Origin: an uncultured Fibrobacterota bacterium
GTDB lineage: Bacteria > Fibrobacterota > Fibrobacteria > Fibrobacterales > Fibrobacteraceae
Direction of reading: 5' to 3'
Assembly: GCA_903876665.1 (NCBI GenBank)
Contig: CAIRAY010000133.1
Span: 7,742-39,741 of the forward strand
DNA: 32,000 nt
Shown: piece after piece, positions 9,165 through 31,119 of the stretch
Layout: every line of letters begins with the position of its first letter
How positions within the stretch are numbered: the first letter of the stretch is position 1
Position numbers and translations under genes: made by a program
Notes under the pieces: generated by a model
Databases searched by the model: none
The model's input: the letters and a program-made list of their open reading frames with translations, nothing else
What the model was told of the DNA's origin: nothing

Positions 9165-10030
9165 GAAAGTACCTCGTTAGAAGGGTGTGGTTGTGGAGCT
9201 TGATAGTAAAAACTTTTGCCATGGGTCCTTTGCAGAAACTCTACATTGGTGCCGTACATGCTCTCGGATGATCCCAGAAACAGCATTCCTGCGGGCTCAA
9301 GGATTTTGCGAAGTTGTAGAAGAACGGCGGTCTTCTGCTCGGGAGAAAAATAGATGATCATGTTGCGACAAAAAATGATATCGAACCTTCCCATTTCCAT
9401 GATGGGTCGGGAAAGGTTTACATGCTGAAATGTAACTCGCTTGCGCAGGGATTCCGCAAGGGTCCATTGGTCACCATTTTTGGAAAAATAGCGTTCCCGA
9501 TCTTCGATGGGGAGGTTATGGCCAATCTCCATATCGGTATAACGACCTTGCCGGGCCCGTTCCAATGCGCGGGTAGAAATGTCAATACCGGTAATGGAAA
9601 AATCCTCTGCGGTCCATTCCGGATTCGAGGATTGCCAGTTACTGATGCTCATCGCAAGGGTGTATGGTTCTTGTCCATAACTACACCCAGCGGATAAAAT
9701 TCGAATGCAAGGGGACTTGTGTGTTCTTTTCGCAACCTTTTGCAAGGCCAATGCAGGCAGGATTTGTTCAACCAGGGTCTGAAAATGGAAGGGGTCCCGG
9801 TAAAATCCGCTTTCATGAGTCGTCATAGCCTCAATGGTGGAGCGGATCAGGGATTCCCGGCCTCCGGTGAGCAAGACTAAGAAATCAGAGAAGGAGCCAC
9901 AGCCTTCTTTTTGCAGGAGTTCTCCGAGTCGGGTGGAGAATAAATATTGCTTGGCCTCGGGCACGTCGATACCCGTTTCGCGCAGGAGGAATTTGCGTAG
10001 CAGTTGGAATTCATTTTCGGAGAGTTGCAT
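9152..10030 (-). CDS. cheR: CheR chemotaxis protein methyltransferase
   Basis: N-terminal helical domain (FQLLRKFLLRETGI), SAM-binding RILSAGCSYGQEPYTLAM, and DIIFCRNMIIYF. TAATG junction with cheB. Confidence 0.9.
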   Translation of the reverse strand: MQLSENEFQLLRKFLLRETGIDVPEAKQYLFSTRLGELLQKEGCGSFSDFLVLLTGGRESLIRSTIEAMTTHESGFYRDPFHFQTLVEQILPALALQKVAKRTHKSPCIRILSAGCSYGQEPYTLAMSISNWQSSNPEWTAEDFSITGIDISTRALERARQGRYTDMEIGHNLPIEDRERYFSKNGDQWTLAESLRKRVTFQHVNLSRPIMEMGRFDIIFCRNMIIYFSPEQKTAVLLQLRKILEPAGMLFLGSSESMYGTNVEFLQRTHGKSFYYQAPQPHPSNEVLSWKF

Positions 10031-11079
10031 TAGCCACCTCCCACAAGTTCGTATATGCGATTTGCTATGTCACCTAATGGAACGATTTCATCGGCAATGC
10101 CTGCCCGCACAACGCTTCCGGGCATTCCCCAAACCACGGAACTTTGTTCGTCTTGCACCATCACCGCGCCACCGGATTTTTTAATCTCGATTGCGCCATT
10201 AGTTCCATCGCTCCCCATGCCGGTGAGCACAATGGCCAGGGTCCGGCTCCCCAATACCGGGCATGCTGAACGGAACAGAACGTTGACCGAGGGTCTGCAG
10301 CCATTGTCAGGGGGAGCATCGTTGAGCACCAGGCGAGGCAAGTTTTCGGGGCTGCGCTCCAGTGTGCAATGACGGCCTCCCGGAGCCAGATAGACCCGTC
10401 CTGGCTGAAGAGGCTCACCGTCCTGCGCTTCGCTGACGCGAATGGGACATTTACGATCCAATGCTGCCGCCATGGCCCCGGTAAATTCTTTGGGCATGTG
10501 CAGGACAATCACAATGGGAATGCGGGTAGAAGGGTGGAGGCCTGAAAGTAGTGTTACCAAGGCTTCCGGGCCTCCTGTGGAAACCCCAATCAGAATGGCA
10601 TCAAATTTGGATTCGCCCTTCAGTCGTGGAACAGGTGCCGGGGCAATGTTTGCTTTGGGCCGACTGATTTGCGCCAAGCGGGAGTATTGTTTTATGGAGC
10701 AACAACGAATTTTGGAGAGCAAAAGATTGGATACGGTATGGCTGGTTTCCAACCCAGGGACAACATCAAATGCTCCCACAGCGAGGGCATCGACAATTCG
10801 CTTGGCCCCAGTCGGTTCTTTGCTTTCCGATATGAGGATGATTCCGGCGTGGGATGAAATCTTCCGCGCCTGCACGGTGAATTCCACCAAATCCTGGCGA
10901 TCTTCGAGGAGCACAATGTCAGGGGAAAGTGTGCGCACCAGGTCAAGCCCGGTTTTCATTTCCTTGGCGGTTCCCACGATTTCCATATCCTGGGTGGCCT
11001 GGACGATCCCTTGAACAGATGGACCTTCGGTTGCCGAATTTTTGCTTACGAAAATAATGCGAATTCGGTCCTGATTCAT
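10030..11079 (-). CDS. cheB: CheB methylesterase with a degenerate receiver domain
   Basis: Catalytic Ser (GVSTGGP), His (VLHMP) and Asp (GMGSDG) are present. The N-terminal receiver-like fold lacks the acidic pocket and the acceptor Asp (see findings). ATGA overlap with the cheW stop. Confidence 0.85.
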   Translation of the reverse strand: MNQDRIRIIFVSKNSATEGPSVQGIVQATQDMEIVGTAKEMKTGLDLVRTLSPDIVLLEDRQDLVEFTVQARKISSHAGIILISESKEPTGAKRIVDALAVGAFDVVPGLETSHTVSNLLLSKIRCCSIKQYSRLAQISRPKANIAPAPVPRLKGESKFDAILIGVSTGGPEALVTLLSGLHPSTRIPIVIVLHMPKEFTGAMAAALDRKCPIRVSEAQDGEPLQPGRVYLAPGGRHCTLERSPENLPRLVLNDAPPDNGCRPSVNVLFRSACPVLGSRTLAIVLTGMGSDGTNGAIEIKKSGGAVMVQDEQSSVVWGMPGSVVRAGIADEIVPLGDIANRIYELVGGG

Positions 11080-11561
11080 GCAGTTGCTCCGAGGATTGCG
11101 CCAGCATTGAGGATTACTAGCGGGAGAGGGTCCAATCGAACCACACCTTCGACATAAGAACGGTATTGGGCCAATAGGTGAGAGGGGGCATCCTCAATAC
11201 GGGAAGGCTCAACCGTCACAATGTCCCCTACGGAACCCACAAGGAATCCGACGGGAATCGAACCCAAATAATCGAGGTCGAAATTTGGAGTATAGTCGGA
11301 AACAGCTTCGATCTCACTTGTGGTTTTGAGAATGATGATTTGGGAGTCGTCGGTGATCTGTTGTTCGGAGCCTCCCAGGCTTACCCGGAGGTCTAGTACC
11401 ACCACGACCTGGCCGCGAATGTTGACAACCCCGCTCACATCCCCGACTTTCAATGGCACGGGAGTAATGTGGACCGCAGGGGTAATTTCTTTTACTAGGC
11501 GGATGTCGAATCCGAAGAGTCCACCGGGTACTTGAAAAGAGACGAATTGTTGATGTTTCAT
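11076..11561 (-). CDS. cheW: CheW coupling protein
   Basis: FVSFQVPGGLFGFDIRLVKEI...VNIRGQVVVVLDL is typical CheW. The start is set at the internal ATG 11561, which forms an ATGA overlap with the cheA stop (11558-11560). The track's upstream extension would lie inside cheA. Confidence 0.85.
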   Translation of the reverse strand: MKHQQFVSFQVPGGLFGFDIRLVKEITPAVHITPVPLKVGDVSGVVNIRGQVVVVLDLRVSLGGSEQQITDDSQIIILKTTSEIEAVSDYTPNFDLDYLGSIPVGFLVGSVGDIVTVEPSRIEDAPSHLLAQYRSYVEGVVRLDPLPLVILNAGAILGATA

Positions 11562-14500
11562 GGTGAAAATTCCCGAACCCGCGCCAAAAGGGACTTCACA
11601 GCTTCGCCTAGCATAGGTAAGTTGCTTTTGGTACAAAAGTCGTCGAACCCTGCGTCCAGGGTGCGTGGCCGCATGATTTTTTCGTCCATGGCTGAAATCC
11701 CTAATAGCGGAATATGACTGAAGGCTTCGCTGGATTTAAGGTGCCGCGCCAAATCGAGCCCGTCCATGACTGGCATTTCAATGTCGCTGACCACGCAACT
11801 CACTTCGGTGTTGCGAATGATCTCCAGTGCCTCTTTGCCATTGTTTGCCGTGAGAACCTCGAGGCCGATTCCCCGCAGGTAGGATGTGACAAGGGCCCGA
11901 TAGAGGAAAGAGTCCTCAGCAAGAATGATTCGATTCGCTGCGGCATTGGGCATGTCCAACGAAGACATCCAGCCAGGTTCCACGATTTCAACCAGGGCGC
12001 AAAGGTCCAAAAGGGTAGTCGCGAACCCATTCACAATCTGAGAACCAATGATGGCAGCCTGGTCCGTGGAATGGATCAAATTGGCGTTTTCGACTTCCAC
12101 GATGCCAATGATACTGGAAGCCGCGATCCCCACAGGCTGGCCGATTTTGGGGATAATGACATGCAGGAATTCGTGGTCGTAGAGGGAGGATATGCCCGTG
12201 ATGGCTTGTTCGATGCGAACAAGGGGAATCAGGGAATTTCTGAAGCAAAGGAACTCACGCCCTCGAGCAATTTGGATTTCCTGAATCCGGATCTCATCTA
12301 CCCGCATCAGCAAGCTCAAGGGCACGGCAAATCGTTCTACTCCGTTAGTAAACACCAACATCTTTTGCTGTTCATCCTGGTTGGCAAGGACTTTGGTAGT
12401 CTGGGTTTCGGTCTTTTCGCAGCGGATTCCCCCGGTGCGGGCCAGCTCGGAAACATCTAGAATGAAGGAGGTGGTGCCATCTCCCAGAACCGTTACGCCC
12501 GCATATACCTTGCTCGCCTTGAGCTTGTCATGCAGAGGTTTGACAACGATTTCCTCTGTATCCACAATTCGCTCCACGCATAGGCCAAAGGTGTCGCTTC
12601 CGACGCGCAGCACGATGATGTAGAGGGCATTTTCCAATGCCACCCGCCGATCACGGATTTCTGCCCGCTTCCCGGTGTCGAATTCGCCTCCTTTTTGTCG
12701 GCGATCGGGAGCTTCCTCGCGACGATCCGCCACAATATCTCCGGAAATCGGATCAACGTAGGAGCGAGGGATGTTGAGAACCTTGGAAAGCCGGATAAGG
12801 GGAAGCATGTTTCCCCGGAGCCAATAGACTTCGCTCTCATCGATTTTCTGGATGCATTGGTATACCTCGTCTCCATGCAACCACACCACTTCGATGACAT
12901 TCACCTGGGGAACGGCAAAACACTGTTCCTCTACGGCGAGGATGATGGCTGGAATAATGGCAAGGGTCAGAGGGAGCTGAATGGATATGGTAGATCCGAA
13001 CCCGACCACGGAGGTGATTTCGACGATTCCACCCAATTTTTGTAAGGAGGCCCGGACCACATCCATCCCCACGCCACGTCCTGAAACTTCGGTGATCTGT
13101 TTTGCGGTGGAAAACCCGGGCAGGAATATGAGATTGAGGGCTTCGCGGTCCGAGAGGTCTTCCACCTGGGTTGGGGTCATTAAGCCTTTTTCAACTACGG
13201 CGGCCCGGATTTTTTTGGGATCGATTCCTTTCCCATCATCGGAAACCTGGATATTGACCAAGCCTGCTTGATGCTGGGCTACGAGCGAGATATGACCGAC
13301 AGCGGATTTACCACCCACTCTTCGCTCTTCGGGGGATTCGATTCCGTGATCTACCGCATTACGCACAAGATGCATCAAGGGCTCAACCATGCCATCGACG
13401 ATGCTTTTGTCCAGTTCCACATCGGATCCGCTGATGGTCAGTTCCATCTCTTTGCCCAGGCTGCGACTCAGGTCCCGAATCACCCGGGTAAACCGTCCAA
13501 ATACGCTTCCGATTGCCTGCATGCGGGTTCGCATGACGATGCGCTGGATGTCGGAGGTCACCACATTGAGGCGTTGGTTTACTGCAGAAATTTCGCGGGT
13601 ATTTCCGCTTGACTGCAACTGGGCCGAGCGGTTGCGGACCACAACCAGCTCCCCAGCAAGGTTCATGAGTTTGTCTGCAATTTCCACCGAAATGCGGACG
13701 GTTTGTTCCTGGGAGCGCGAGGCGGGCACCTGCTCCCGGGAAGTTGCAGGGACGGGTGGTTGTGGATTCGCCGTGACTTGGACTTTGGGTACTTCGATGG
13801 GTGGAGGCGCGCTTTCCGCCGGAGCGGGAAATTCTTCCGGCGTGTAATGAACAAAGGACAGCGGCTCGATTTGCAGCCCAGGAAACAGAAGGTCGGGATC
13901 ATCGATCATGGTGGCGAGAAGAAATGAGCAATCGGAAAAGGAAGGGGGAGCTGCAGTGAATGCGCTTGCTTCGGGTTTTGAATCCAGCAGGATTCCGAGG
14001 GATCCAATGGATTCATAGAGTGCAACAGGAGTGGCGGAGCTGCGGGAACATTCCTTATGGGGGTCTAGCAGGATTTCAAAAATATGCAAGCCTTGACTCT
14101 TGGCTTCGCTGGTGTCGTATTTTCGCAAATCAAAAATGGTGGCCGGCACCGCTTTGACGGGATTGGATTGGGGTGATGCGGACTGGGTGGGCTGTTGCGC
14201 AATCCTTTGCAGGTGCTGGAGGATTTGATCCACATCTCCAAGAACGCCCTTTCCGGATAAAATTCCACTTTTTAGCTTGTCCATTCCCTCAAGCAAAGTC
14301 TGGGTGATTTCGGAATTGGGCAAAAGGGTACCGTCTCGGAGCAGACCAGCTACGCTCTCCATGGCGTGGGCGAATTCCTTGACACGGTCGAAGTCCACGC
14401 AGGCTGCACCCCCCTTGATGGTGTGCAGAGCTCGGAACAGGCGGTTCACGGTCTCCTTGTCTTCCCCTGCGCCTTCTTCCAGGGCAAGGATATCCTCCTC

Positions 14501-14563
14501 GGCAGTCACCAGGTGTTCCTGTGCCTCGGTGATAAATTCCTTGATTAAATTGGCGAGATTCAT
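11558..14563 (-). CDS. cheA: Hybrid CheA histidine kinase: HPt, dimerization, HATPase, two CheW-like domains, C-terminal receiver
   Basis: HPt LFRALHTIKGGAA; N-box HLVRNAVDHGIE; G1 DDGKGID; G2 GRGVGMDVV. CheW-like 1 starts at QCFAVPQVNVIEV and CheW-like 2 at KMLVFTNGVERFAVPLSLL. Receiver: IILAEDS...VVSDIEMPVMDG...GISAM...FCTKS. Confidence 0.9.
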   Translation of the reverse strand: MNLANLIKEFITEAQEHLVTAEEDILALEEGAGEDKETVNRLFRALHTIKGGAACVDFDRVKEFAHAMESVAGLLRDGTLLPNSEITQTLLEGMDKLKSGILSGKGVLGDVDQILQHLQRIAQQPTQSASPQSNPVKAVPATIFDLRKYDTSEAKSQGLHIFEILLDPHKECSRSSATPVALYESIGSLGILLDSKPEASAFTAAPPSFSDCSFLLATMIDDPDLLFPGLQIEPLSFVHYTPEEFPAPAESAPPPIEVPKVQVTANPQPPVPATSREQVPASRSQEQTVRISVEIADKLMNLAGELVVVRNRSAQLQSSGNTREISAVNQRLNVVTSDIQRIVMRTRMQAIGSVFGRFTRVIRDLSRSLGKEMELTISGSDVELDKSIVDGMVEPLMHLVRNAVDHGIESPEERRVGGKSAVGHISLVAQHQAGLVNIQVSDDGKGIDPKKIRAAVVEKGLMTPTQVEDLSDREALNLIFLPGFSTAKQITEVSGRGVGMDVVRASLQKLGGIVEITSVVGFGSTISIQLPLTLAIIPAIILAVEEQCFAVPQVNVIEVVWLHGDEVYQCIQKIDESEVYWLRGNMLPLIRLSKVLNIPRSYVDPISGDIVADRREEAPDRRQKGGEFDTGKRAEIRDRRVALENALYIIVLRVGSDTFGLCVERIVDTEEIVVKPLHDKLKASKVYAGVTVLGDGTTSFILDVSELARTGGIRCEKTETQTTKVLANQDEQQKMLVFTNGVERFAVPLSLLMRVDEIRIQEIQIARGREFLCFRNSLIPLVRIEQAITGISSLYDHEFLHVIIPKIGQPVGIAASSIIGIVEVENANLIHSTDQAAIIGSQIVNGFATTLLDLCALVEIVEPGWMSSLDMPNAAANRIILAEDSFLYRALVTSYLRGIGLEVLTANNGKEALEIIRNTEVSCVVSDIEMPVMDGLDLARHLKSSEAFSHIPLLGISAMDEKIMRPRTLDAGFDDFCTKSNLPMLGEAVKSLLARVREFSP

Positions 14564-14580
14564 TCCTTCTCCGCCAAGAT

Positions 14581-16515
14581 TCAGGCAATAATTTTTAGGA
14601 CATCATTCAGCTTCTCGACATCGCTGGAGACCTGGTTAAGCGAGTTGAACATGTCTTGTATGTCTTCCGTGAAGGTCATGGCGGCGGTTTTGGATTGGTG
14701 CATGATTTCGGCTGTAGTCTCCGCCATGGAAAGGGTGCCGGAAATTCTTTCGTTCACATCCCCAATGGCCATTGCCGTACCTGCAATATTTTTCGCAACC
14801 ACATTGGCGCCTTGGGCGATTTCGTTGATGTTGTGCGAAACCTGCTTGGAGGCGTGGGCGGTTTCGGCAATCTGCCGAGCGATGGCACCTGAGCCGGTAG
14901 AGGCTTCGGAGATGTTGCTCGAAATATAGTTGGTGGCCAAGGTTTGTTTCTCCACCATATCCGAAATGACTTTCTGCAGGTGGTTGATGGTATCAATGAT
15001 GGACGAAATCAAGGCAATGGCGGAAACAGCCTTTTGAGTGTCGCCCTGAATTTTTTCGATCCGGGCCGTAATGTCTTCGGTCGCGGTTGCCGTTTGTTTG
15101 GCCAGCTCCTTCACTTCGTTTGCCACCACGGCGAAACCTCGGCCTGCGTCGCCGGCACTTGCCGCTTCGATGGCCGCGTTGAGGGCAAGCAGATTGGTTT
15201 GCTTGGCGATGACCTGGATTACGCTGGTCACTTTGCCGATTTCGTTGGCGCTTTTGCCGAGCATGCCCATGATTTCAGAAGTTTCCTTGGCTGCTACGGA
15301 AGCATTCCCTGCCACGGTGGTGCCTTCACGGGCATTTTGGGCTACGCTGTTGATTGCAGTCGAGAGGTCTTTTACTGCATTGTCCACAATGCGGAAATTG
15401 CTGGACATTTGTTCGGCGGTGGCGGCCACGGAAATCATGGTGGTGCTAATTTCTTCCGAGGTGCTCGCCACGGTATTGATGTTGGTAGAAATCTCTTCCG
15501 CTGCTGTAGCCACGGTGGAGATGGAGGAAGCCATTTTCTCGGAAGATGCCGTTAGGTCCTTGGTATAGTCCTCAAGAATTTTAATGGCCTCAATGCCGGA
15601 GCTAGTCTGAACATCATTTTCCAGAATGGTGTTTGCCATCTTTTCGGCTAAGGATTTCTGCTTGTCTGTCGAGGATCCAATGGCCTTGGCGCAGGTGGCG
15701 ATTTGTTGTTGCGTTTTGTCAATAAGCTGATTGAAAGCCACAAACAGTTCCCCTAACTCGTCTTGCGAGGTGACGGCAAGGTGCTTGGTTCCCGTTTCGC
15801 CATTGTTTTGGGTCACCAGGTTTTGTACATGGAGAATTGACTTTCGCAGAGGAACGGTGATGCTGATTCCAATGCGGTAGGAGAGAGCGAGGAGTCCGAG
15901 CAGGACCAGTATTCCAAAGCCAATTAGGCCCCGCAGAAAGTTTGCGATCATCTGGTTTGCGCTGGCTTCGGAAGCCTGATTGAGCTGGTTGGCCTGGATG
16001 ACGACCTGGTCAATGGCCGCCCGGTGGGCCTTGTATTGTGGCTTCAAAGACTTTTGCAAAACTTCCTGTGCCTGGGGGTAGTTCTTGGCTGCCAGAGCAG
16101 GTAGGAATTCCCTTTTCACGACAGCATAAAACTCCATGGCCGGTTCATAGGCCTTGTCCGTCATGGTCTCTTTTAATTGCCCATCTGGCAAGGCCCGTTG
16201 CCAAAACTTATTGCGGGTTTTGTATTCGGATTCCAGGCCTTGAAGTTTGTCCTTGAGGGCCTGGGATTCACGCGGATCCCGTTCATCCGCCAGCTGTTCG
16301 ACGGTCAGGTAGGACTCGATGATATATTCTGGTGGAGGGAGGATGTCGGCAATTAGGTCTTTTCCATTGACGATTTGTTGGTAAAGATCGCCGTTGATAC
16401 GCAGGGTCATGATTGTTTTGTAGGAGGCAAGGCCGAAAATGAGCAGTGCCGCCAGAGAAAAGGCCACAATTGCAGAAATTTTCCGGGTAATGCTTAAGCG
16501 GTTGAGAATAGCCAT
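14581..16515 (-). CDS. mcp: Methyl-accepting chemotaxis protein (two TM segments, ~165-aa periplasmic domain, HAMP, long signalling domain)
   Basis: Hairpin-tip motif [33 protein letters not shown]; HAMP around [19 protein letters not shown] at 16515 ([12 protein letters not shown]) is preferred over the track's TTG at 16584. GGAGAAGGA Shine-Dalgarno sits in the 17-nt gap before cheA. Confidence 0.9.
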
Positions 16516-16631
16516 GAGTGTTTCCTGTTTTCGGAATGATCTTTGAGGTGCGGGTATTCTACCACCAAAGCGGTTCAAAGTCAAGAGAATGGCCTGGGCG
16601 GGCTAGTAATACTGATGTTATCTTTGAAGGC

Positions 16632-17633: not shown

Positions 17634-17662
17634 GGGATGACCCTAGGAAAAACAAAAAAATA

Positions 17663-17684
17663 GCCCCGTTTTGGGGTTGTTTTT
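17663..17684 (+). terminator. Weak rho-independent terminator after trpS
   Basis: CCCC (17664-17667), 5-nt loop, GGGG (17673-17676), then TTGTTTTT. The stem is very short. Confidence 0.4.
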
Positions 17685-17687: not shown

Positions 17688-17743
17688 CTTTTGCATGCCC
17701 GCCTGTCTTTGTCATGCCCAATTGCTTTGTCATGCCCGGCAGG
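17688..17743 (+). repeat. Three tandem copies (19/18-nt spacing) of CTTTG(T)CATGCCC, the last extending to TTGTCATGCCCGGCAGG
   Basis: CATGCC starts at 17694, 17713 and 17731. Same core as the repeats at 8675-8693 and 31862-31880. Confidence 0.75.
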
Positions 17744-17816
17744 GGCATCACCGCACCATTCAGCAATACTCTGTGATATGAGCCTGCCCCCGGAACAGGG
17801 GGTGCCGGGCATGACA
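17728..17816. repeat. Perfect 14-nt inverted repeat TGTCATGCCCGGCA / TGCCGGGCATGACA, 61 nt apart, enclosing a CCCCC-GGAACA-GGGGG hairpin
   Basis: 17728-17741 is the exact reverse complement of 17803-17816. The inner hairpin is at 17787-17802. Confidence 0.75.
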
Positions 17817-17985
17817 CATTTTATGCATCCCAATTTTCATATTTTGGGCCCCGTTTGCATTTTCAAGCATTTCCCCTGGGGCAAAAACCGATATCCTTGC
17901 AATCTTCGGGAAAATTGGGTATCTTGAGTGAAACGCTATTTTTAGCGGAAGTGATTCACTTTTCACAAGATAGGCGGTCTTTGCT

Positions 17986-19851
17986 TTGAAATTGCTTTCA
18001 ATTTTCCTTGCAGTTTTACTTGGGCTTTCGAGTCTGGGATTTGGCCAAGAGTCTGAAAAGGAACGCCGTTCCCGGCAATTCTCAGCTTATTATGAGTCAT
18101 TGGTAAACCAGTCGCTTACGCGGTATTACCATAACACCTCGTTCATGGTGGATGCCCGGGTGATCCTTGCCGAGCAATCCCAGGCGCTACCGGATTCCCT
18201 CGCCGCTGCCGTGGAGCCCGCAATTGAGCCTCCATCCCAAGCGGAATCTAACAACGAGTTCCGCAATCCCGATGGGCTCGAAGCCCTTCCTGGCCTTCCG
18301 GTGATGCCCGAACAAATGCGCACCGGCGGAAAACCCTTGTTCAATCTGGAGCCCGCCAAGGCCCGTTCCCCCGCTCCCAACCCAGTGACCCGCACGGAAC
18401 TTGGAATTGAGTACATCGACATTACGGTTCTGGTGGATACCGTGTACTCTCCGGAAGATGTGGAGTTCATCATGGAGCTTGTGGGCATGGTATCCAAATT
18501 GGATGATGCCCGTGGCGACCGGGTTTTTGTCCGTAAGAAGGTATTTCCTCGGATGTCCCGGGAGCTGGAATCCGAACACCGGGTCCGCAATGACAGCATG
18601 CCCCATCCTGTCGATACGGTTCATCTGGATTCACTTGCGGAGAAATCCCATCCTTGGAATGCCTATTGGGAGCAATTGCCCTCCTTGCTTCCCCTCTTGC
18701 TGATTCTGGTTTTTTTGACCGTGATTGTCGCTGTCGTGGTCCGGGGTTTGCGTAGCGCACAAATTCCACCCGAGCTGATCAAGCACCTGGAAACCTCGCG
18801 AATGCCCGTGATTCCTCCTGTGGTGGAACCGTCCAAGCCCATGCCACAAGCCCCCGAAGCTTTGGATCAGGCCAAGTTTGACACACAACGTACCGCCTGT
18901 TTGAATGCGCTCATCGGCGACCCGGTGGGTGGAGCCATGTTGCTCAAAAACTGGATTGAGGCCGACCGTTCTAAAGGCCTGAGCGACACTGCGGTATTCA
19001 TTGAATCCCTGGACACCAAGGTTCTGGAAATTCTCAAACCCCACTTCCAGCCCCAGGATCTGAAGGGCTTGCATTTGCAGATGGACGTGCAGACCATGCC
19101 TTCCCTCGAAGACCGCACCAGTCTTCTCCTTACCTTCCACAAGGAATTGCGCAATCTCCGGTCACGAAGCACGGACGGAACTATCGCCGATATTTTTGGT
19201 TTCCTTCATCAGCTTTCCACGCCTCAGCTCATGCACATTCTAAAAGACGAACCTGTGGGGATTGTGGGACTTGCCTTGGCGCAAATCCCGGGCGAGCGTG
19301 CAGGCCTAATTCTGCAACAAATGGAGCCCGACTTCCGCACCCAGGTTTTGGTGGCCATGGGTCAAATCGACACCATCCCCGTGCAAGCCTACAAAGAAGT
19401 CGCTAATCGCCTATCCCGCAAGGCTCTTGAGGTGGGGAACATGCGTTTTGTTGCTGCGGATGGCGTACAAACTGTTCTCGATATTGTTCAGGGTCTGGGC
19501 CTGGTGGAACAGGTGGAATACCTGCGTTCTATCGCCGAGCGCGACTTGAATTTGGCCGGTCGCCTGCGTCGGTTCTATGCCCTGTTTGAGGAAATTCCCT
19601 ATTTGCCCGAGCCCATTTTGGTCAAGGTTCTCAATACTTTCGAGCGGGAACAGCTCGTTTCATCCCTGGTGGGAACCGAGGCGGATTTCCGTGAAAAACT
19701 CTTGATGTCCATGCCTCAGAGATTCCGCATGGCTGTTGATTCGGGCCTGGAAAGCAAAATGGATCAGAGCCCTCTGGAAACCGAAAGAGCCCGCAAGCTT
19801 TTGCTTGGGCTTATCCGTCAAGAATTGCAGGCCGCAGGAGGTCGCACATGA
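17986..19851 (+). CDS. Membrane-anchored FliF-RBM-like / FliG-like fusion protein (putative rotor component)
   Basis: TTG start; the frame opens only at 17974 and the next ATG is at codon 54. It gives a good signal/anchor, MKLLSIFLAVLLGLSSLGFG. Periplasmic part: YESLVNQSL..FMVDARVIL and IEYIDITVLVD...DVEFIMELVGMV...DRVFV (ring-building-motif-like). TM at aa 231-254. Cytoplasmic aa ~296-621 match FliG along their length (see findings). Confidence 0.7.
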   Translation: MKLLSIFLAVLLGLSSLGFGQESEKERRSRQFSAYYESLVNQSLTRYYHNTSFMVDARVILAEQSQALPDSLAAAVEPAIEPPSQAESNNEFRNPDGLEALPGLPVMPEQMRTGGKPLFNLEPAKARSPAPNPVTRTELGIEYIDITVLVDTVYSPEDVEFIMELVGMVSKLDDARGDRVFVRKKVFPRMSRELESEHRVRNDSMPHPVDTVHLDSLAEKSHPWNAYWEQLPSLLPLLLILVFLTVIVAVVVRGLRSAQIPPELIKHLETSRMPVIPPVVEPSKPMPQAPEALDQAKFDTQRTACLNALIGDPVGGAMLLKNWIEADRSKGLSDTAVFIESLDTKVLEILKPHFQPQDLKGLHLQMDVQTMPSLEDRTSLLLTFHKELRNLRSRSTDGTIADIFGFLHQLSTPQLMHILKDEPVGIVGLALAQIPGERAGLILQQMEPDFRTQVLVAMGQIDTIPVQAYKEVANRLSRKALEVGNMRFVAADGVQTVLDIVQGLGLVEQVEYLRSIAERDLNLAGRLRRFYALFEEIPYLPEPILVKVLNTFEREQLVSSLVGTEADFREKLLMSMPQRFRMAVDSGLESKMDQSPLETERARKLLLGLIRQELQAAGGRT

Positions 19852-20972
19852 AGCGCTTGATTATTGCCCTTGCTCTTTTATGCGCCTGGCCCTCGTTTGC
19901 GGAAGACCTGAAGGCTCCGGCTTCCTCCAAAGAAAAGCAAAAAGTTCTTTTCTACGAAGACATGTACGGAAGCCGTACCGGCATCAAGCAATTCTATGAC
20001 ATCCTGAGTCAGATGCAGCGCGCCATCGGCGATCTTCCTCCCGACATCCAGCGCCTCGCCATGTACAATCTGCGTGTGGACCGCGATGACTTTACCCCGG
20101 GGATGATGAAGTTTTTTCAAGGAAAAATCGAAGAAACCTTTATCAAATATGGCCGCCGTCAGATCGTTGCCGCACCCGAATTGCGCTCCACTCGCATTGT
20201 TTCCACCGATACCTCCTTTGTCCTTTCCAATACCTTGCCTACCCAGAATGACCTGTGGAAAATTGGAGAAGCCTTGCGCCTGGACGGATTCATCGAAGGC
20301 AATTTAACCCGCAGCGAAATGGGGGATATTATGTTGAGCCTGAAGGTATTCCGCCACAAAAGCGCCGAGGTGGTGTGGTCGGGAAGCTTTGTCTCTGGGC
20401 CCAATGAGGATAAATACTATTTCCCCCTTATGGATATTGGAACTCGACTTTCCTTTGGCTATTGGCCGGTTTCAAAATACACGGATGAAACCGAAACTAT
20501 TCGGGAGCCGACCCTCAAATTGGACATGTACCAATACGCGGTGGAATTTACCGTGAGTGAAGCCGCAAATAGCAACCGGAGACTTTACTTGGGCGCAGCT
20601 GCTGGGCTAAGTTTTCTTTTCCCGGTGGCCGATAATCCCCGGGATTCCGTGGTGGGTGACTTGCCTTCGAACTGGGTGGGCATTGCTGGGGCCGATTTGG
20701 TGTATGTATTTGTTGCCAAAGAGAATTTTGACGATGGGTATTGGCTTGGGGCCTATTTAGGAATGCGGGTGTATTTCCCACAAAAATTGATCATCATCCG
20801 TCATGGCTACTCCAGTCGAATTTCTCGCCACTTCATTCTTTCCGCAGGGTTGCAATTCATGCCACTTCTCGATCAGCTGATTGCAAGCAAGTCTCTATTG
20901 TCCACTACGGGTGATTACGAGCTTAAACTGCAGAACCCTACCTATGAAGTGAGTATTCAGTATGCCTACTAA
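19848..20972 (+). CDS. Outer-membrane protein: periplasmic alpha/beta domain plus C-terminal beta-barrel
   Basis: AGGAGG Shine-Dalgarno and ATGA overlap with the upstream stop. Signal peptide MKRLIIALALLCAWPSFA. The N-domain ends in LRLDGFIEGNLTRSEMGDIMLSLKVFRHKSAEVVWSGSF (TolB-N/CsgG/LpoB-like pattern, low confidence). The C-terminal half has amphipathic strands ending YEVSIQYAY, an OMP-type terminal aromatic. Confidence 0.6.
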   Translation: MKRLIIALALLCAWPSFAEDLKAPASSKEKQKVLFYEDMYGSRTGIKQFYDILSQMQRAIGDLPPDIQRLAMYNLRVDRDDFTPGMMKFFQGKIEETFIKYGRRQIVAAPELRSTRIVSTDTSFVLSNTLPTQNDLWKIGEALRLDGFIEGNLTRSEMGDIMLSLKVFRHKSAEVVWSGSFVSGPNEDKYYFPLMDIGTRLSFGYWPVSKYTDETETIREPTLKLDMYQYAVEFTVSEAANSNRRLYLGAAAGLSFLFPVADNPRDSVVGDLPSNWVGIAGADLVYVFVAKENFDDGYWLGAYLGMRVYFPQKLIIIRHGYSSRISRHFILSAGLQFMPLLDQLIASKSLLSTTGDYELKLQNPTYEVSIQYAY

Positions 20973-21747
20973 TCCTTTTTGGTTGCCACGGATCCTGGGC
21001 CTAAGCATGGTCTGCGCTTTGGTGGCTTGCTCCAGCAATCCTCCCCAGGAAGAGGGCTACTTGCCTGGTTCCGCATCGGATGATTCCGCTGGCTGGGCCC
21101 AAACTCCGATCCGTCCCGTACAAAAGCAGAGACCCGTTTCGGGGATCACCATGACGTACCACAATGATGCGTCGACATTGCAGATGACGATTGACCCATA
21201 CGATGAAAATTTGAACATCGAAATGAAACGGAGTCCGCACACCCAAGAGGTGGCTGTTCCTGAAAAACCGCGCCGGGATACGGTCTTCATGATGTCCCCG
21301 CAAGCAGCCTCGGCTCCTACAAATGTATCGGTACAAGCTCCTCCGACTTCCGTGAATGTGCAATTACAGCTTCCTCCAGAGCGTCGGGATTCCTCCAAGG
21401 CGGTTCCAGCGATTGATACTGCCGGGCTCGGCCAAAAGCAGCTGGACCTGCTCAAATCCAAGGAGAAGGAATGGGCAGATGCGACCGATGAGGTGATCAC
21501 CAATATTCGTCTGGCCCAAGAATACTTCTACAAACAGGACTATTCCTCTGCGCTTCGTCTGGTAAAGATCGCAGAAGAAAAGCGCCCTACCGCCGAGGGA
21601 TATGCCCTGCGGGGAAGCATCATGTATATGTTGCGGGATAACGGCGCGGCCCGTTTTTACTGGAGCCAGGCTCTAACGCTCAATCCTAATCTTCCCGATG
21701 TAATCCAAGCGCTTTCCAAGCTGGATCAGACGAAGGAAGGTCGCTAA
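20962..21747 (+). CDS. TPR-repeat lipoprotein
   Basis: Lipobox LVAC|SS. ~150 aa of low-complexity P/S/Q-rich linker, then C-terminal TPR-like helices (AQEYFYKQDYSSALRLVKIA..., GAARFYWSQALTLNPNLPD). 11-nt overlap with the upstream gene. Confidence 0.65.
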   Translation: MPTNPFWLPRILGLSMVCALVACSSNPPQEEGYLPGSASDDSAGWAQTPIRPVQKQRPVSGITMTYHNDASTLQMTIDPYDENLNIEMKRSPHTQEVAVPEKPRRDTVFMMSPQAASAPTNVSVQAPPTSVNVQLQLPPERRDSSKAVPAIDTAGLGQKQLDLLKSKEKEWADATDEVITNIRLAQEYFYKQDYSSALRLVKIAEEKRPTAEGYALRGSIMYMLRDNGAARFYWSQALTLNPNLPDVIQALSKLDQTKEGR

Positions 21748-22562
21748 TGCCTCTTTCACTGTCCACTCTTGCCGGAGTGATTTTTGGAACCATTGTGGTG
21801 ATCTGGGGTATTTCCACTGCAACCACCAACACGAGGGCCTTTCTGGATCTGGGAAGTTTTTTGATTGTGGTGGGTGGAACGTTGACCTCGACATTTATCG
21901 GGTTCCGGGCCCGCTACATTTTTAAGGCGTTGCTCGCTCTTCCGCTGATTTTTCTGCGTCAGCGCATTAATCCAGAAAGCCTGCGTGATGATATTCGTAA
22001 GGTCATTGATTGGAATAAGCGAATTCAGGAAGGTGGGGCAAAGGCTCTGGATGTTTTGGCGACGGATTCGAAAGAGTCGGATTTTGTGCGTTACGTATTT
22101 GGCCTGGTCGCAACGGGATACAAGGAACATGAGGTCGAAGCATTTTCTACCACACAGATTGAGGAAGAATATTTCCGTGGCCTTCAGCAGCCCAATATTC
22201 TAGCCTACATGGCTGCTGCCGCCCCGGCTTTTGGAATGCTCGGTACTTTGATCGGTCTGATTGCGATGTTGGATAAATTGGATGATCCATCCAAGATGGG
22301 ACCCGGCCTTGCTCTCGCCCTGATTACCACCCTCTACGGAGTGATCGCTGCCCGCTTTGTCTTTTTACCTGCATCTACCAAGGTAAAGCAGATTTATGGC
22401 ATTCAGCGTTTTCGCAACTATTTGCTTCTCGAGGGGGTGGGCCTAATCATGCAGAAGCGGTCGGCCCTGTACATTCAAGATCGGTTAAACTCTTTTATGG
22501 ATACCAAGTATCGACTTTCGGTGCTGGATGAGAAGACCAGCCAAGCCAGCAAGTCCAAGTAG
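21747..22562 (+). CDS. motA: MotA/PomA-type stator proton-channel subunit
   Basis: 4-TM MotA topology: two N-terminal TMs, a ~95-aa cytoplasmic loop, then two TMs. Conserved prolines in AAPAFGMLGTLIGL and FVFLPAS. TAATG junction upstream. Confidence 0.8.
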   Translation: MPLSLSTLAGVIFGTIVVIWGISTATTNTRAFLDLGSFLIVVGGTLTSTFIGFRARYIFKALLALPLIFLRQRINPESLRDDIRKVIDWNKRIQEGGAKALDVLATDSKESDFVRYVFGLVATGYKEHEVEAFSTTQIEEEYFRGLQQPNILAYMAAAAPAFGMLGTLIGLIAMLDKLDDPSKMGPGLALALITTLYGVIAARFVFLPASTKVKQIYGIQRFRNYLLLEGVGLIMQKRSALYIQDRLNSFMDTKYRLSVLDEKTSQASKSK

Positions 22563-22568: not shown

Positions 22569-23249
22569 ATGTCTCTTAAGAGTCAACCCAATCGCTACCG
22601 CAATGATGAAGGATATGATTCTGCGGGCATGGATGAATGGCTGGGAACCTATTCCGATATGGTTACTCTGCTTCTCGCCTTCTTTGTTTTGATGATGGGA
22701 ATTTCGAAGGTGGAACCCGCATTGTGGGAATCCATGAAATCAGGTCTTCGTTCCGAAATTTCTGGCCAGGAAAAAGTAAAAACACCCCTCGCTGAAATTA
22801 AGCATGACTTGGATTCTCTTCTCTCGGTGGAGCAAGCCCAGAACCTGGTAAAAATTGAAATGACCCAAGAAGGGATTGTGATGAAATTTGCCAGTTCCGC
22901 CTTTTATCAGGCGGGAAGCGCCGAGGTCGGAGCCCAAGCCAAAGGGATCATGGATCGGGTTGTTGTTGCGATGAAGAATATCGATTATTACCCGTTTCAA
23001 ATTGATATTGAAGGGCACACGGACAATGTCCCCATACATACCGAACGATATCCCTCCAATTGGGAACTTTCCGTGTCTCGGGCAACCAACATCGTGAAGT
23101 ACATGCTCGCCCAAGGGGTTGCCCCCGATCGTCTCAAGGCGGCTGGTTACGCGGATACCAAGCCAATTCTCCCCAACCTCGATTCATTGGGGAAGGGAAT
23201 CGACTCCAATCAGGCCCAGAATCGGCGCATTGTCGTCCGTATTCATTGA
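22569..23249 (+). CDS. motB: MotB-type stator subunit with OmpA-like peptidoglycan-binding domain
   Basis: Single TM carrying the channel Asp (TYSDMVTLLLAFFVLMMG). C-terminal OmpA-like IEGHTDNVPI...SNWELSVSRATNIVKYM...GYADTKPI...NRRIVVRI. Confidence 0.8.
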   Translation: MSLKSQPNRYRNDEGYDSAGMDEWLGTYSDMVTLLLAFFVLMMGISKVEPALWESMKSGLRSEISGQEKVKTPLAEIKHDLDSLLSVEQAQNLVKIEMTQEGIVMKFASSAFYQAGSAEVGAQAKGIMDRVVVAMKNIDYYPFQIDIEGHTDNVPIHTERYPSNWELSVSRATNIVKYMLAQGVAPDRLKAAGYADTKPILPNLDSLGKGIDSNQAQNRRIVVRIH

Positions 23250-23260
23250 TTTTAAACGCC

Positions 23261-23977
23261 ATGCCCAGCCAATACAGCGAGCTTCATGGCGTTCATATTC
23301 GGAAGACCATCGAGAAATTGTGTCGTCGCATTCACGAGCGTTTTCCTGGGTCCGGACTGGGTGGAGTTGCTGCGGAGCTGGAGCAGGTTTCTGCGGAAAA
23401 TGAACGAGTGGTGAGCCAATTACAAAAGCCGATTTGGTGGCTGCGAGTGCTCACCGTGATTGCGATTGGCTCCTTGGTTAGCTTGTTTTCTTGGGTCGCC
23501 TTTCGGTTGGCAACCCTTGCGCTTACGGGTGCAGCGACTCTTTCCGACGTTCTGCAGGGCATGGATGCGGGCATCAATGAAGTCGTCTTTCTTACTTTGG
23601 CAATAGCCTTCCTGGTGTCTTTGGAGAATCGTATCAAGCGTGGCAAGGCCTTGCGCATCCTGCATAAATTGCGGAGCATTGCGCATGTGGTGGATATGCA
23701 CCAACTTACCAAGGATCCAGAATATCTATTATATCCCGAGGCTCCTTTGGCCAATTCTCCGGAGCGCTTGTTGGACCGACATCAATTGGTCCGCTACTTG
23801 GATTACTGTTCCGAATTGCTTTCCTTGACCGCAAAACTTGCCGCATTGCACGGGCAGTCCATGCAGGATGCCCAGGTGCTAGAAACGGTCAATGATTTGG
23901 AAAGCCTTGCTTCGGATCTCTCCCGCAAGGTTTGGCAGAAGATCTCCATCTTGAGATCCTCCGGCGATGGAAATTAA
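23261..23977 (+). CDS. Hypothetical membrane protein (helical N and C regions flanking a 2-TM hairpin)
   Basis: ATG at 23261 is the first start after the motB stop; the track's longer ORF overlaps motB. TMs IWWLRVLTVIAIGSLVSLFSWVAF and VVFLTLAIAFLVSL. No motif I recognise. Confidence 0.55.
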   Translation: MPSQYSELHGVHIRKTIEKLCRRIHERFPGSGLGGVAAELEQVSAENERVVSQLQKPIWWLRVLTVIAIGSLVSLFSWVAFRLATLALTGAATLSDVLQGMDAGINEVVFLTLAIAFLVSLENRIKRGKALRILHKLRSIAHVVDMHQLTKDPEYLLYPEAPLANSPERLLDRHQLVRYLDYCSELLSLTAKLAALHGQSMQDAQVLETVNDLESLASDLSRKVWQKISILRSSGDGN

Positions 23978-25994: not shown

Positions 25995-28900
25995 CTATTT
26001 TCTTTCCAGCAAAATCATGGGTGTCGTGGCGTCCAAAATGGATTCCCATTCCCTGCGGATTCCCTCATATTCCGATGCGTCCGCGTAAACCGACAGAGTT
26101 TCCCAGCGCATGCTGCTCGAGCTGTTCTGGGTTGTTGGCTTCTGGTCCAGCTGGATGTAATTCAGAGCATCCAACCCTTGGGATGCTTGCTTCAGTGAAA
26201 TCCCGAAACGATCTGGTCCACGGACCTTGAGGCTCCAGGAGAAGGTGGTTTCGTGGGGTAAGCGCAAGGGGTGATGGCGTTTGGTGATTTTGGGTAAACG
26301 CATGAAGCTTCTCTCCCAAATATTCGGGAACGCCCCTTGAATCCGGTCGGGACTCTGCCCAAAGTAATGAGCGGAAGTAAAGGTGACAATGAGGACCAGC
26401 GGTTTTGCAAATTCCTGCACGTTCTCTACTTTTAGGCTATTGATGGTGGCGTCAGGAATGGCTTGTTCGAGCCAGTTTGCGAGATAGCGGGTCCGTTCCT
26501 TTTGATCGCGGGAAATCATTTGTGCGCGCATGGCCGAGCCAAATTTGCCAAATAGAGTCAAGCTATCACGAAATTCGGCTTTTCCGGTGGAGTCGATGTA
26601 GAGGCTATGAGCGATGAAGGCTTGGTGTTCCTGGTCTTTTTCGAGAACCGGAGTCACGGAAATTTGAGAAGAATCCCCGTTGATGATTAGCGAAACCTTG
26701 CCTTCCAGATCTAGCGCAATGGGTCTGCGCGCTCCAGCCTTGTCGGTAGGATCTAGCCAAAGATCAGGCCAGTTTTTGCCTGCAGGCACATAGAGGACCA
26801 TGTGGTTGAACTGTTGTATGGTGGGTAAGGCCTCCGAGCCTGGTTCCTCCAAATTGACCAAGGCCATGCGGGACTTGATTCCAATGGTTTCCAGCATTTC
26901 CTTGAGGAGGAGGGACTGATCCTTGCAGTCGCCCTGGCGTTCGTTCAGGGTTGCCAGGGAAAGACTTGGAATCAAGGAATGCCCGCCAAAGGCGATGTCG
27001 CGATAGCGGATGTTTTCGCGCACCCAATCCGCCATGCGGAATATGGTCTCTTGATCGAGGGCGCGGCTACCACGTACTTCAAAGGCCTTTTCCCGTACCG
27101 GAATACTGGATTTAAACTGGTGCTGGATCATGTTCTGGTAATCCCGTCCCACCTGTTCCCAGCTCTGTTTTCCGGCGATCAGGACTCCCGCCCCGAAATC
27201 CCGGTAAACGGGCATAAATACTTCCTTGCGAATGACCACGGGAGCATCCACCGTCCATTCGATTCCACCCGGAACAGCCATTCTTTCAATGGGGCCGTAT
27301 TCTTCGGTAACGATGCTCGAGGTGTCGGTCAGCAGACGCAGAATGTCTTTGCCCACGGGAATGTCCTGTGAAGCCATGTGATGGGTGAAAGGAATCACCC
27401 CGGTATTTTCAATGCTGGTGCGGGAGACTTGAAAATAGATGAAGTCCCCGGGCTTGAGGTCGGTGAGGGGAAGGTGTGCCATTTGGGCATCGCTACCCGA
27501 TCCAGCCTCATTGAGGTAGGTGATGTATGCCTCTTTCACCGACCAGCGGGTTTTGAGCTTCCAACTGGAATCATAGACTTCAAGCGCATTCACAAATATG
27601 CGGTCGAATCCAGGGAGGAATGTGTAGGTAAATTCCTGGAAGAGGCCTGCGCCCCGCGGATCCAAAATCTCGATGAGGGCTTGCTGGGTACGGATCCAGG
27701 ACGCATTCTTGTTGGTCTTGAGAGCCTCTTCCTGCCAGTGGACCACGGCGGGAAATTCCTCGGCCCGGGCGGAATCGACGAGTCCCGCCTTCAATTCATC
27801 CTTCAGGTTACGGGGGCGGGAAACCACGGGTTCAATGGTGGCTTGCAAGGCCCGGATGTCCGCTTTTCCCAGAAACGCCTTGGTCGCGGAAAGGAAACTT
27901 TTCGCATCTTCATCGTCTGGCTTCAGTTCCAAAGCCTTATGCAGGGTGTTCTCTGCCATGCGGAATTGTTTCAAATGGAACTGGGTCTTCCCGCGGGCAT
28001 TCCAAACTTCAAAATTGTTGCTGACTTTGGGAAGTAATTCATCGGAGATGGCCAATGCCTCCTGATGTCTCCCCAAGAATGTGAGCGCATCGATTATGGC
28101 AAGTCCAATATCTTTGTTCAGAGTGAAACGACGTTTTACCGAATAAAGAAGATCCACCGCCTCTGAGTATTGATCGAGGCCCATCAAGGTTTTTGCGACA
28201 TATACGCCAAGCCGTGCCGAGGGTTGCTTGCGGTAAAGACCTTGCACGATCTCCAAGGATTGGGTGCGTTGGCCGATACCCCAAAGGGCGTCCGAGGTGT
28301 TGATCACCAGCTCGGGATCATGTGGGCTATATTGGAGTGCCATCTCATAGTATTGTAGAGCCCGATTGTAATCATGCAGCGATTCGTACATTTCGCCCAG
28401 AATCGCAAGCAGCTTTCCGCTCTTTTTGATCAAGTCGATTTGGGATAGGAAATGGTCTGTTCCCGGGCCGAATAAATTCCTCATTTGGTAAACAAATCCA
28501 CAATTGATCAAATACAAGGGTTCGGAAGGATCCATGTGGTTTGCTTTTTCAAAATAGGACAATGCGACCAGAGGCTGATCTTCGGCTAGGCGCAACAAGC
28601 CGACTTGATTTACGATGCGTGCGTTGAATTGTTGCAGGCGGGCCTGCTGGGGGAGACCTCCGGCCGGAACGGGCTCCAGCTTGAGACCATCAAGGGCGCG
28701 GTCAATCGCTTTGCGGTATCCACCGGCCAAAGAATTTTGGGTCCAGGTCGCGATCAGGATTCCGCGCCCATTTTCGTAAAAGAATCGTCCCCGATAAAAG
28801 AAGTCATAGCCACTGATCAGGCGGACGCTTTGGAAATCCTGGGTGAATACGTCCCCACTGCCTTTTTTTGTGGTTTCGAGATCGGGCGAGTCCGGGTCGA

Positions 28901-30973: not shown

Positions 30974-31008
30974 GGGCCCTGCTCTTCGGAGCGGGGTCCT
31001 TTTCTTTT
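30974..31008 (+). terminator. Strong rho-independent terminator after gap
   Basis: GGGCCCTGCTC-TTCG-GAGCGGGGTCC (11-bp stem with two G-U pairs, tetraloop) followed by TTTTCTTTT. Confidence 0.85.
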
Positions 31009-31119
31009 GGGACTACAAAAGCTAAAGGCGAGTATATATTTCTTCTACTGGGTCCAACTTTCCCAGAATTTCCTTGAAACTGACTCCTGGTTTGCGCATA
31101 ATCAAATCAGACACACCCT

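Follow-up and report, generated by a model that had tools for sequence, protein, structure and literature searches.

The locus described here lies in a 32,000-nucleotide stretch of DNA (hereafter, the window) from an uncultured Fibrobacterota bacterium (GenBank assembly GCA_903876665.1, contig CAIRAY010000133.1, positions 7,742 to 39,741 of the forward strand) and consists of five tightly packed genes in the order fusion, gene 2, gene 3, MotA and MotB. The first gene encodes a membrane protein in which (i) an ectodomain resembling the third ring-building motif (RBM) of FliF, (ii) a single transmembrane (TM) helix and (iii) a FliG-like N/M/C region share one polypeptide, and the last two genes encode a stator of the flagellar type. 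A FliF/YscJ-type ring motif, a TM helix and FliG-like N/M/C domains had been proposed for the first gene from its sequence (the original prediction); this is largely right, with support for both halves, and the partner genes lie beyond the segment that the proposal covered. The dedicated MotAB cassette is the strongest support for reading the protein as a FliF/FliG fusion. On the evidence below, the fusion is probably a one-polypeptide rotor and the five-gene operon a non-flagellar, envelope-spanning, ion-driven motor.

The existence of the open reading frame (ORF) of the fusion (17986..19851, + strand, 621 residues) is confirmed, and a TTG start is forced by the reading frame, as had been claimed. 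An in-frame TAG (17971-17973) lies four codons 5' of the TTG at 17986, which is the earliest possible start; a second TTG is found at 17992, and no ATG or GTG occurs until codon 54, itself within the conserved ectodomain. The signal peptide of homologues begins at the point equivalent to TTG 17986. The AlphaFold2 (AF2) model of the protein (predicted local distance difference test, pLDDT, of 80.4) includes a helix at residues 2-18 that corresponds to the signal peptide, helix 24-45, strand 53-67, a disordered stretch at 68-134, strand 135-150, helix 156-169, strand 179-184, a TM helix at 225-257 and an all-helical region at 290-617. This model agrees with the segments first proposed. Proline accounts for 18% of residues 68-134 and 22% of the linker at 255-295, compared to 7% of the whole fusion protein. 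Residues 1-20, initially described as a signal or anchor, are predicted to be a signal peptide but not an anchor, as the segment is likely of the cleavable signal peptidase I (SPase-I) type and not a first TM helix.

The FliG-like half is readily recognized by profile searches. Pfam FliG_M (PF14841) is matched at residues 414-485 with 40.2 bits (gathering score 25) and is found in all 40 members of the family alignment used here for counts of residue conservation in the fusion. FliG_C (PF01706) is matched at residues 515-612 with 43.1 bits (gathering score 23.3). A profile of the 40 family members retrieves Thermotoga maritima FliG-MC from the PDB (E = 5e-30) and aligns to E. coli FliG 110-320 with an hhalign probability of 98.6%. 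By these sequence comparisons, the similarity to FliG is far beyond chance. Foldseek searches with the AF2 model return FliG at ranks 1-13, including full-length FliG (3hjl) aligned over 319 of 321 residues; thus, a FliG-N-like domain is implied as well. The profile and structure comparisons by which the domain assignments were to be judged are, thus, in their favor, with FliG_M and FliG_C over the Pfam thresholds, YscJ_FliF_C over threshold in homologues only, and FliG followed by FliF ring structures among the Foldseek matches. A Pfam FliG_N match is also noted; it scores 18.5 bits, under the gathering score of 25, and overlaps the M domain. Residues 296-397 give a weak sequence alignment to E. 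coli FliG 4-71 (sub-profile hhalign, P = 0.006), and matches to MgtE_N extend into this region in some homologues.

The fusion protein differs from the soluble FliG of ~330 residues that is encoded among flagellar genes, and its scores against the FliG equivalogs TIGR00207 (62.4 bits; cut-off 226.7) and NF004260 (20.6 bits; cut-off 550) place it outside the FliG orthologues. Searched as a single sequence against 5.8 billion proteins, it retrieves FliG-domain proteins of ~600 residues and two shorter ones, at least one of which is partial; canonical FliG is absent from these matches. The exact protein is labelled 'flagellar motor switch protein FliG' in IMG. The FliG landmarks align with E. coli FliG where they had been placed, apart from DEPV, which is one residue off EHPQ; the equivalents are ADGV for GGV, FYALFEE for MFLFENL and MPQRF for MSQRA (hhalign). 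The EHPQR motif by which FliG binds FliM is lost: E422-P-V-G stands where E. coli has EHPQ, and of these residues the Glu alone is conserved (37/40 members). In the torque region, R579 (equivalent to E. coli R281) is Arg in 38/40 members and Lys in the other 2/40, the adjoining P577 is invariant, and E589 is present in 36/40; D/E593 and E600 are further conserved acids. The original prediction that R281 is kept and that K264 and R297 are lost therefore stands, whereas the retention of D288 or D289 does not, since D585 is the counterpart of E. coli R287 and lacks conservation, and the residues at S586/G587 are not acidic across the family.

In the FliF-like half, the N-terminal domain, a single RBM within an ectodomain of ~210 residues, has the AF2 topology of an RBM (alpha-beta-[68-134]-beta-alpha-beta). 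The collar of FliF RBM3 sits between strands 1 and 2 (PMC4768692), and the insertion at 68-134 has exactly this position, which bears out the proposal that a motif split by an insertion recalls RBM3. Pfam YscJ_FliF_C (PF08345) matches 17 of the 40 members, four of them over the gathering score of 23.8 (best, 31.5 bits), and these matches always place the end of the profile (~71-147 of 147) on the closing beta-alpha-beta block (VLVDT.YS..D..F...RGD.v.v...FP). The same block is aligned by hhalign to E. coli FliF 373-431 (P = 1.8e-4), with a common RGD...FP/F motif that immediately precedes the TM helix. At ranks 14-30, Foldseek lists FliF MS-ring and RBM3 structures (probability 0.99-1.0), with template modeling scores by target length of ~0.45-0.56 for chains that hold only RBM3 or the S-ring and 0.52-0.56 for the RBM3/collar structure 6sd1 and others. 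The closing strand-helix-strand, first placed at residues 139-183, is thus borne out by AF2, by PF08345 in homologues, by hhalign and by Foldseek. The opening helix and ARVHL-like strand, placed at residues 32-62, hold at the level of fold, but their sequence alignment is weak (P = 0.003): they align weakly and co-linearly with E. coli FliF, beginning at its residue 235, and the opening helix and strand alone give P = 0.086 against the 'ARVHL' of E. coli FliF RBM2 (sub-profile hhalign), which is too weak for proof. Overall, the sequence link of the ectodomain to FliF is real but thin.

Other elements of FliF are missing. Neither the window protein nor a single one of the 40 family members gives a Pfam match to RBM1/RBM2 (YscJ_FliF, SctJ-like). 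In place of the two TM helices of FliF, the fusion has a cleavable-looking SPase-I signal peptide (ending in AQ among homologues) and one TM helix, and the C-terminal FliG-binding peptide of FliF is replaced by a covalent link. The FliF ring is composed of ~33-34 subunits, and its RBM1 and RBM2 seat the export gate. The LPGLPxxP motif within the insertion is invariant in the alignment of 40 sequences, with L104 dropping to conservation of at least 90% in a wider set.

The four genes that accompany the fusion are tightly linked to it. The fusion stop overlaps the start of gene 2 (ATGA), gene 2 and gene 3 overlap by 11 nt, gene 3 overlaps the start of MotA by one base, and MotA and MotB are separated by 6 nt. 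The gene 2 product has no match to a Pfam or NCBIfam family. Its AF2 model (pLDDT 79.9) consists of a domain like those of TolB-N, LpoB and PelC followed by a beta-barrel like the outer-membrane barrels of OmpA and OmpW, and its orthologues have a signal peptide and a C-terminal Phe or Tyr. The 90%-identity cluster of gene 2 also holds a 50-residue 'hypothetical protein' attributed to Paenibacillus sp. T2-29, probably a fragment or from a contaminant contig. In gene 3, the lipobox Cys is present in nearly all orthologues; an Elusimicrobia locus (L002, 12950-14341) has a much longer version (463 residues) with an N-terminus that lacks this Cys. No TolA/TonB-like gene is found within the cassette. 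The predicted targeting signals of the cassette proteins fit inner-membrane, lipoprotein and outer-membrane sites.

The stator is closest to the flagellar type. The best PDB matches of the cassette MotA are PomA 8bri (E = 5e-27) and MotA 6ysf, with the MotP group also matched, and its score against the TolQ family is 19.7 bits (cut-off 221). The MotA and MotB scores fall under the NCBIfam equivalog cut-offs. Equivalents of E. coli MotB D32 and of MotA P173 and P222 are invariant in 55 of 55 cassettes (the set used for all stator residues), and the plug is conserved. As judged from these residues and domains, the ion channel, plug and peptidoglycan anchor of the stator are all intact.

The region 5' of the fusion gene has features of its own. 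A terminator-like hairpin follows trpS and sets the cassette apart from this upstream gene, and thus the fusion gene has its own regulatory region of 300 nt. The direct copies of CTTTGTCATGCCC in this promoter region are spaced 19 and 18 nt apart, and a perfect 14-nt inverted copy (TGTCATGCCCGGCA at 17728-17741 and TGCCGGGCATGACA at 17803-17816) is separated by 61 nt. Together, the repeats look like a putative operator for some regulator.

Features of the fusion gene, its partner genes and the control region (positions in the window; residues are numbered from the TTG start)
Feature	Position	Strand	Basis or remark
Terminator-like hairpin 3' of trpS, 13-pair stem then T run	17656..17684	+	
Candidate operator region, three direct CTTTGTCATGCCC copies and an inverted copy	17688..17816		
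Fusion gene, 621 aa from a TTG start, with signal peptide, ectodomain like RBM3, TM helix, linker and FliG-like N/M/C region	17986..19851	+	
aa 1-20, Sec-type signal peptide	17986..18045	+	Predicted cleavage between …LGFG and QE; in orthologues the peptide has …AQ at its end
aa 24-67, opening helix and strand, RBM3a-like	18055..18186	+	AF2 helix 24-45 and strand 53-67; Y47 invariant
aa 68-134, Pro-rich disordered insertion of variable length at FliF beta-collar position	18187..18387	+	
aa 101-108, LPGLPxxP motif within the insertion	18286..18309	+	Candidate partner-binding site
aa 135-188, closing strand-helix-strand of RBM3 (…VLVDT.YS..D..F…RGD.v.v…FP)	18388..18549	+	
aa 231-254, single TM helix	18676..18747	+	AF2 helix 225-257; hydrophobic stretch
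aa 255-295, Pro-rich cytoplasmic linker	18748..18870	+	
aa 296-397, six-helix FliG-N-like domain	18871..19176	+	Fold-level assignment
aa 414-485, FliG_M domain	19225..19440	+	Pfam, hhalign
aa 515-612, FliG_C domain	19528..19821	+	Pfam, family profile, hhalign
aa 574-590, torque-helix equivalent	19705..19755	+	Alignment to E. coli FliG
Gene 2, 374 aa with a signal peptide, a periplasmic domain like TolB-N/LpoB/PelC and a barrel like OmpA/OmpW	19848..20972	+	
Gene 3 (261 aa): lipoprotein (LVAC lipobox), C-terminal TPR repeats	20962..21747	+	
MotA/PomA-type stator A subunit	21747..22562	+	MotA_ExbB domain
MotB-type stator B subunit: plug helix, channel Asp, OmpA-like peptidoglycan-binding domain	22569..23249	+	MotB_plug, OmpA

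The cassette is widespread and conserved as a unit. The five genes occur in identical order in every one of the 59 loci in which the contig extends far enough, and the carriers span four phylum-level lineages: Fibrobacterota, many Balneolaceae, Elusimicrobia and KSB1. The N-terminal module is never found unfused (59 clusters among 1.84 billion representatives, nearly all of 560-680 residues). When unsaturated genome pairs are compared, the ratio of nonsynonymous to synonymous substitution rates (dN/dS) amounts to 0.06-0.20 for the fusion, 0.05-0.18 for gene 2, 0.14-0.33 for gene 3 and 0.00-0.14 for MotA/MotB; all five cassette genes are under purifying selection. The cultured carriers are Gracilimonas tropica DSM 19535 (locus L032) and Balneola sp. 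EhC07.

The flanks of the cassette differ from lineage to lineage, and the neighbors considered as further members are not retained. The ORF after motB in the window (23246-23977, or from an alternative start at 23060, overlapping the motB end) has no Pfam or NCBIfam match and no counterpart in other loci. Three unidentified ORFs 5' of the G. tropica cassette are found in 3 loci only, at varying places. A Plug-domain protein of 974 residues that resembles TonB-dependent receptors follows motB on the same strand in a Balneolaceae chromosome (L015, 15012-17936) and is not found after motB in G. tropica; an ECF-like (extracytoplasmic function) sigma factor (DUF6596) lies 5' of the L015 cassette and is likewise missing there in G. 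tropica. Near the cassette of the window, a protein of 1263 residues with TPR, DUF3857 and transglutaminase-core domains is encoded at 25995-29786 (- strand), and a remote relative (21% identity over part of its length) is found directly after motB in a distant Fibrobacterota locus (L001, 15221-18982). This protein is common to the window and L001 only, is absent from the Balneolaceae loci, and is likewise not counted as a member.

G. tropica DSM 19535 is described as non-motile with 17 motility-category genes only (PMC4642740), and G. tropica, Balneola and others lack flagellar-assembly genes in a comparative study that takes the partial flagellar annotations of non-motile Balneolaceae as a pathway decaying by gradual gene loss (PMC9909488). 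The selection data and the synteny across phyla argue against such decay. No other flagellar genes are found in the window (scan of ORFs with at least 150 residues, 31007-31810 excepted) or in the flanks that were inspected at five other loci (L001-L003, L015 and L032). Some Fibrobacterota lineages outside Fibrobacter are flagellated. A complete chemosensory cluster (9152-16584, - strand) that encodes a methyl-accepting chemotaxis protein with a HAMP domain, CheA fused to CheW and a receiver domain, CheW, CheB and CheR lies 1.4 kb upstream of the cassette on the opposite strand. It adjoins the cassette in no other locus and is rejected as part of the system, and the 'CheA' matches in the Balneolaceae loci stem from an unrelated hybrid histidine kinase.

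Because the cassette is conserved across lineages that include a non-motile species without flagella, it probably encodes an undescribed non-flagellar motor, most likely a rotor ring that is driven by MotAB and linked mechanically to the outer membrane. In the proposed mechanism, the RBM3-like domains would oligomerize to form an S-ring-like ring just outside the inner membrane, so that the FliG-like C domains would form a ring beneath that membrane. MotA5B2 units anchored to peptidoglycan would conduct protons or Na+ and push on the torque helix (P577, R579 and E589), and the ring would turn as it does in a flagellum. A FliM/FliN switch is not expected, as the EHPQR motif is lost, nor are an export gate and rod, as RBM1 and RBM2 are absent. 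More speculatively, the LPGLPxxP loop at the beta-collar position may bind the TolB-N-like domain of gene 2, the TPR lipoprotein or both, such that rotation or force might be passed to the outer membrane, where it could serve surface movement, remodelling of the envelope or transport. The full proposal, in which the cassette is an unrecognised ion-driven rotary machine with an S-ring-like RBM3 ring, TM helix and FliG ring turned by flagellar-type MotAB, free of a type III export apparatus, rod and filament, and coupled to an outer-membrane barrel/TPR-lipoprotein module, is put at a little short of an even chance. The chance that the cassette as a whole represents a machine of a new kind is substantial.

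Several observations weigh against this reading of a rotor. Of the five torque charges, only the R281 equivalent is kept, with V562 in place of K264, S586/G587 in place of D288/D289 and S595 in place of R297. On the stator side, the equivalent of MotA R90 is Gln in the window (Lys or Arg in 41/55 cassettes), and the E98 column falls in an alignment gap of the E. coli MotA loop, with PomA E96 corresponding to D102 of the window. The FliG-N domain is assigned to residues 296-397 on the modelled fold only. The window fusion protein itself has no YscJ_FliF Pfam match, the hhalign probability of the match to FliF 373-431 is only 48%, and an N-terminal profile (~240-280 residues, 20 diverse members) searched against PDB sequences retrieves no FliF; thus, the FliF link rests on the Pfam matches in homologues, on hhalign and on the fold. 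The absence of flagellar genes from the carriers relies on the KEGG survey of one paper and on flanks of ~10 kb. Finally, we infer ring formation, rotation and the outer-membrane link alike.

The main rival to the rotor is a force transducer similar to TonB or TolA, which is considered rather unlikely. MotAB would act on the FliG-like domain, and the proline-rich LPGLP loop would pull or tether the barrel protein and the TPR lipoprotein, with a closed ring or none; such a system would serve envelope integrity, constriction of the outer membrane or gated transport. The cassette partners are broadly similar to those of Tol-Pal (a motor of the 5:2 type, a domain like TolB-N, a TPR protein and an OmpA-like anchor to peptidoglycan), the extended proline-rich periplasmic segment with its invariant short motif recalls the spacers and binding boxes of TonB and TolA, and an axle, rod and export gate are absent. 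By contrast, the stator is of the flagellar type and not the ExbB/TolQ type, and the periplasmic domain is an RBM that is nearest to FliF RBM3. In addition, no use is known for FliG-like M and C domains with a conserved torque-helix Arg except the reception of torque on a ring.

Three other explanations are each less likely than a force transducer. That the fusion forms the MS-ring and C-ring of an unusual but true flagellum or type III secretion machine, with the other genes elsewhere in the genome, finds some encouragement in the engineered FliF-FliG fusions that assemble and function in Salmonella and Vibrio (PMC4768692, PMC10941966, PMC11481574) and in the chemotaxis cluster upstream. It is nevertheless improbable: the fusion lacks RBM1/RBM2, the seat of the export gate, as well as the FliM-binding motif, the carrier G. 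tropica is non-motile without flagellar-assembly genes, the che cluster is not a conserved neighbor of the cassette, and flagellar genes are unseen in every inspected flank. More improbable still is a sensor or regulator of a MotAB-like ion channel, in which FliG/MgtE_N-like helices would sense Mg2+ or a nucleotide and gate ions with no mechanical output. MgtE_N is the regulatory domain of a Mg2+ channel and a homologue of FliG; weak matches to it in 29/40 members and the loss of several canonical torque charges are consistent with this role. Most of these matches, however, are sub-threshold and overlap better-scoring FliG_M, a periplasmic ring-building domain and dedicated outer-membrane partners would be needless for a regulator, and MotB retains the plug and peptidoglycan anchor of torque-generating stators. 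Least credible is a functionless, decaying remnant of a lost flagellum, to which the homology of several parts to flagellar proteins, the IMG label and the reading of incomplete pathways in non-motile Balneolaceae as gene loss (PMC9909488) would all point. The purifying selection on all five genes (dN/dS 0.0-0.33), the gene order that is identical over four phylum-level lineages, the invariant residues of the ion channel, the two of five genes without a detected flagellar counterpart, and a fusion architecture that is conserved and never found in split form speak against it.

No published description of the cassette was found in the literature on FliG, FliF or MotAB with Fibrobacter/Fibrobacteres/Fibrobacterota, Balneolaceae, Bacteroidota or 'non-flagellar', and a survey of MotAB evolution mentions neither these lineages nor a fused rotor (PMC12505986). 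The nearest precedent is the much smaller FliF-FliG fusion of Chlamydiaceae (CT719 family; Bergeron 2016, PMC4768692), which has ~330 residues with RBM2, a second unassigned RBM, two TM helices and a tail of FliG-M only. It is discussed as a possible injectisome partner, and no MotAB is reported with it (PMC4768692). Both are natural single chains of FliF-type RBMs, TM segments and a cytoplasmic FliG-like region, and each kind of fusion is known from an organism without flagella. As judged from the published description, the fusion of the window is set apart by a single RBM3-type domain, a signal peptide with one TM helix, and a full N/M/C array with torque helix, and it is encoded with dedicated MotAB and outer-membrane partners within one operon.

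Compared to the flagellar FliF/FliG core and MotAB/PomAB, the cassette shares FliG_M, FliG_C, the R281 equivalent, the RBM3-like fold with an insertion at the collar position and RGD...F before the TM helix, as well as a stator with plug, channel Asp and peptidoglycan anchor. It differs in the use of one polypeptide in place of two, in the absence of RBM1/RBM2, beta-collar, export gate, rod, hook, filament and FliM/FliN, in the loss of EHPQR and most torque charges, and in a carrier species that is non-motile and flagellum-less. The claim that FliF-FliG fusions work in Salmonella is borne out, as the covalent chain forms rings and drives rotation at a 1:1 stoichiometry (for the Salmonella and Vibrio fusions: PDB 8z4d/8z4g; PMC10941966, PMC11481574); these fusions, unlike that of the window, are laboratory constructs with full-length FliF (RBM1-3) inside a complete flagellum.

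Similarities to machines that reach the outer membrane are also noted. Like Tol-Pal and Ton (TolQR-TolA-TolB-Pal-CpoB and ExbBD-TonB), the cassette would couple an inner-membrane motor of the 5:2 type to outer-membrane parts and includes a TolB-N-like domain, a TPR protein, an OmpA-like peptidoglycan anchor and a Pro-rich periplasmic segment. Unlike these systems, its stator belongs to the MotA/PomA group, and the force receiver would be a cytoplasmic FliG-like ring protein in place of the TolA or TonB helix inside the stator; no TolB beta-propeller or Pal is detected for the cassette. The motor of type 9 secretion and gliding, found in the same Fibrobacteres-Chlorobi-Bacteroidetes (FCB) superphylum, is likewise a non-flagellar, ion-driven rotary machine, in which GldLM drives the GldK ring and inner-membrane stators are connected to an outer-membrane-associated assembly (10.1101/2024.09.23.614571). 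Its components are unrelated, however, as GldL and GldM are not of the MotA/MotB type and no FliG or RBM3 homologues are included.

If the fusion is indeed a rotor, the cassette would represent the first non-flagellar use of the FliG-MotA torque interface, which to our knowledge is known from flagella only. A recent preprint counts three classes of ion-driven rotary motors (10.1101/2024.09.23.614571). The cassette would then serve as a living model of the rotor-stator core as it was before the flagellum, or else would be the product of a radical re-use of that core once the flagellum had been lost. It would bear on the origin or re-use of the flagellar motor. It would show that the rotor-stator core is selectable on its own and would offer a minimal, genetically simple system for torque generation, with a one-protein rotor and a 1:1 stoichiometry of FliF to FliG. 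An envelope function in Fibrobacterota, Balneolaceae, Elusimicrobia and KSB1 would also be indicated. As two carriers are cultured, the idea is directly testable. Automatic annotation would be corrected on two counts: the 'FliG' label of the databases, and the reading of a broken flagellar pathway in Balneolaceae in the published survey.

Farther upstream in the window, an apparent three-gene operon (1290-5958, - strand) encodes a fusion of CHASE2, adenylate/guanylate cyclase and PilZ domains (760 residues), a FecR-like protein and a weakly matched beta-helix protein. A cyclase that bears its own PilZ domain is unusual. The regions at 41-1279 and 6161-8479 encode a Fib_succ_major-domain protein, which points to a source genome similar to Fibrobacter, and a family-8 polysaccharide lyase.

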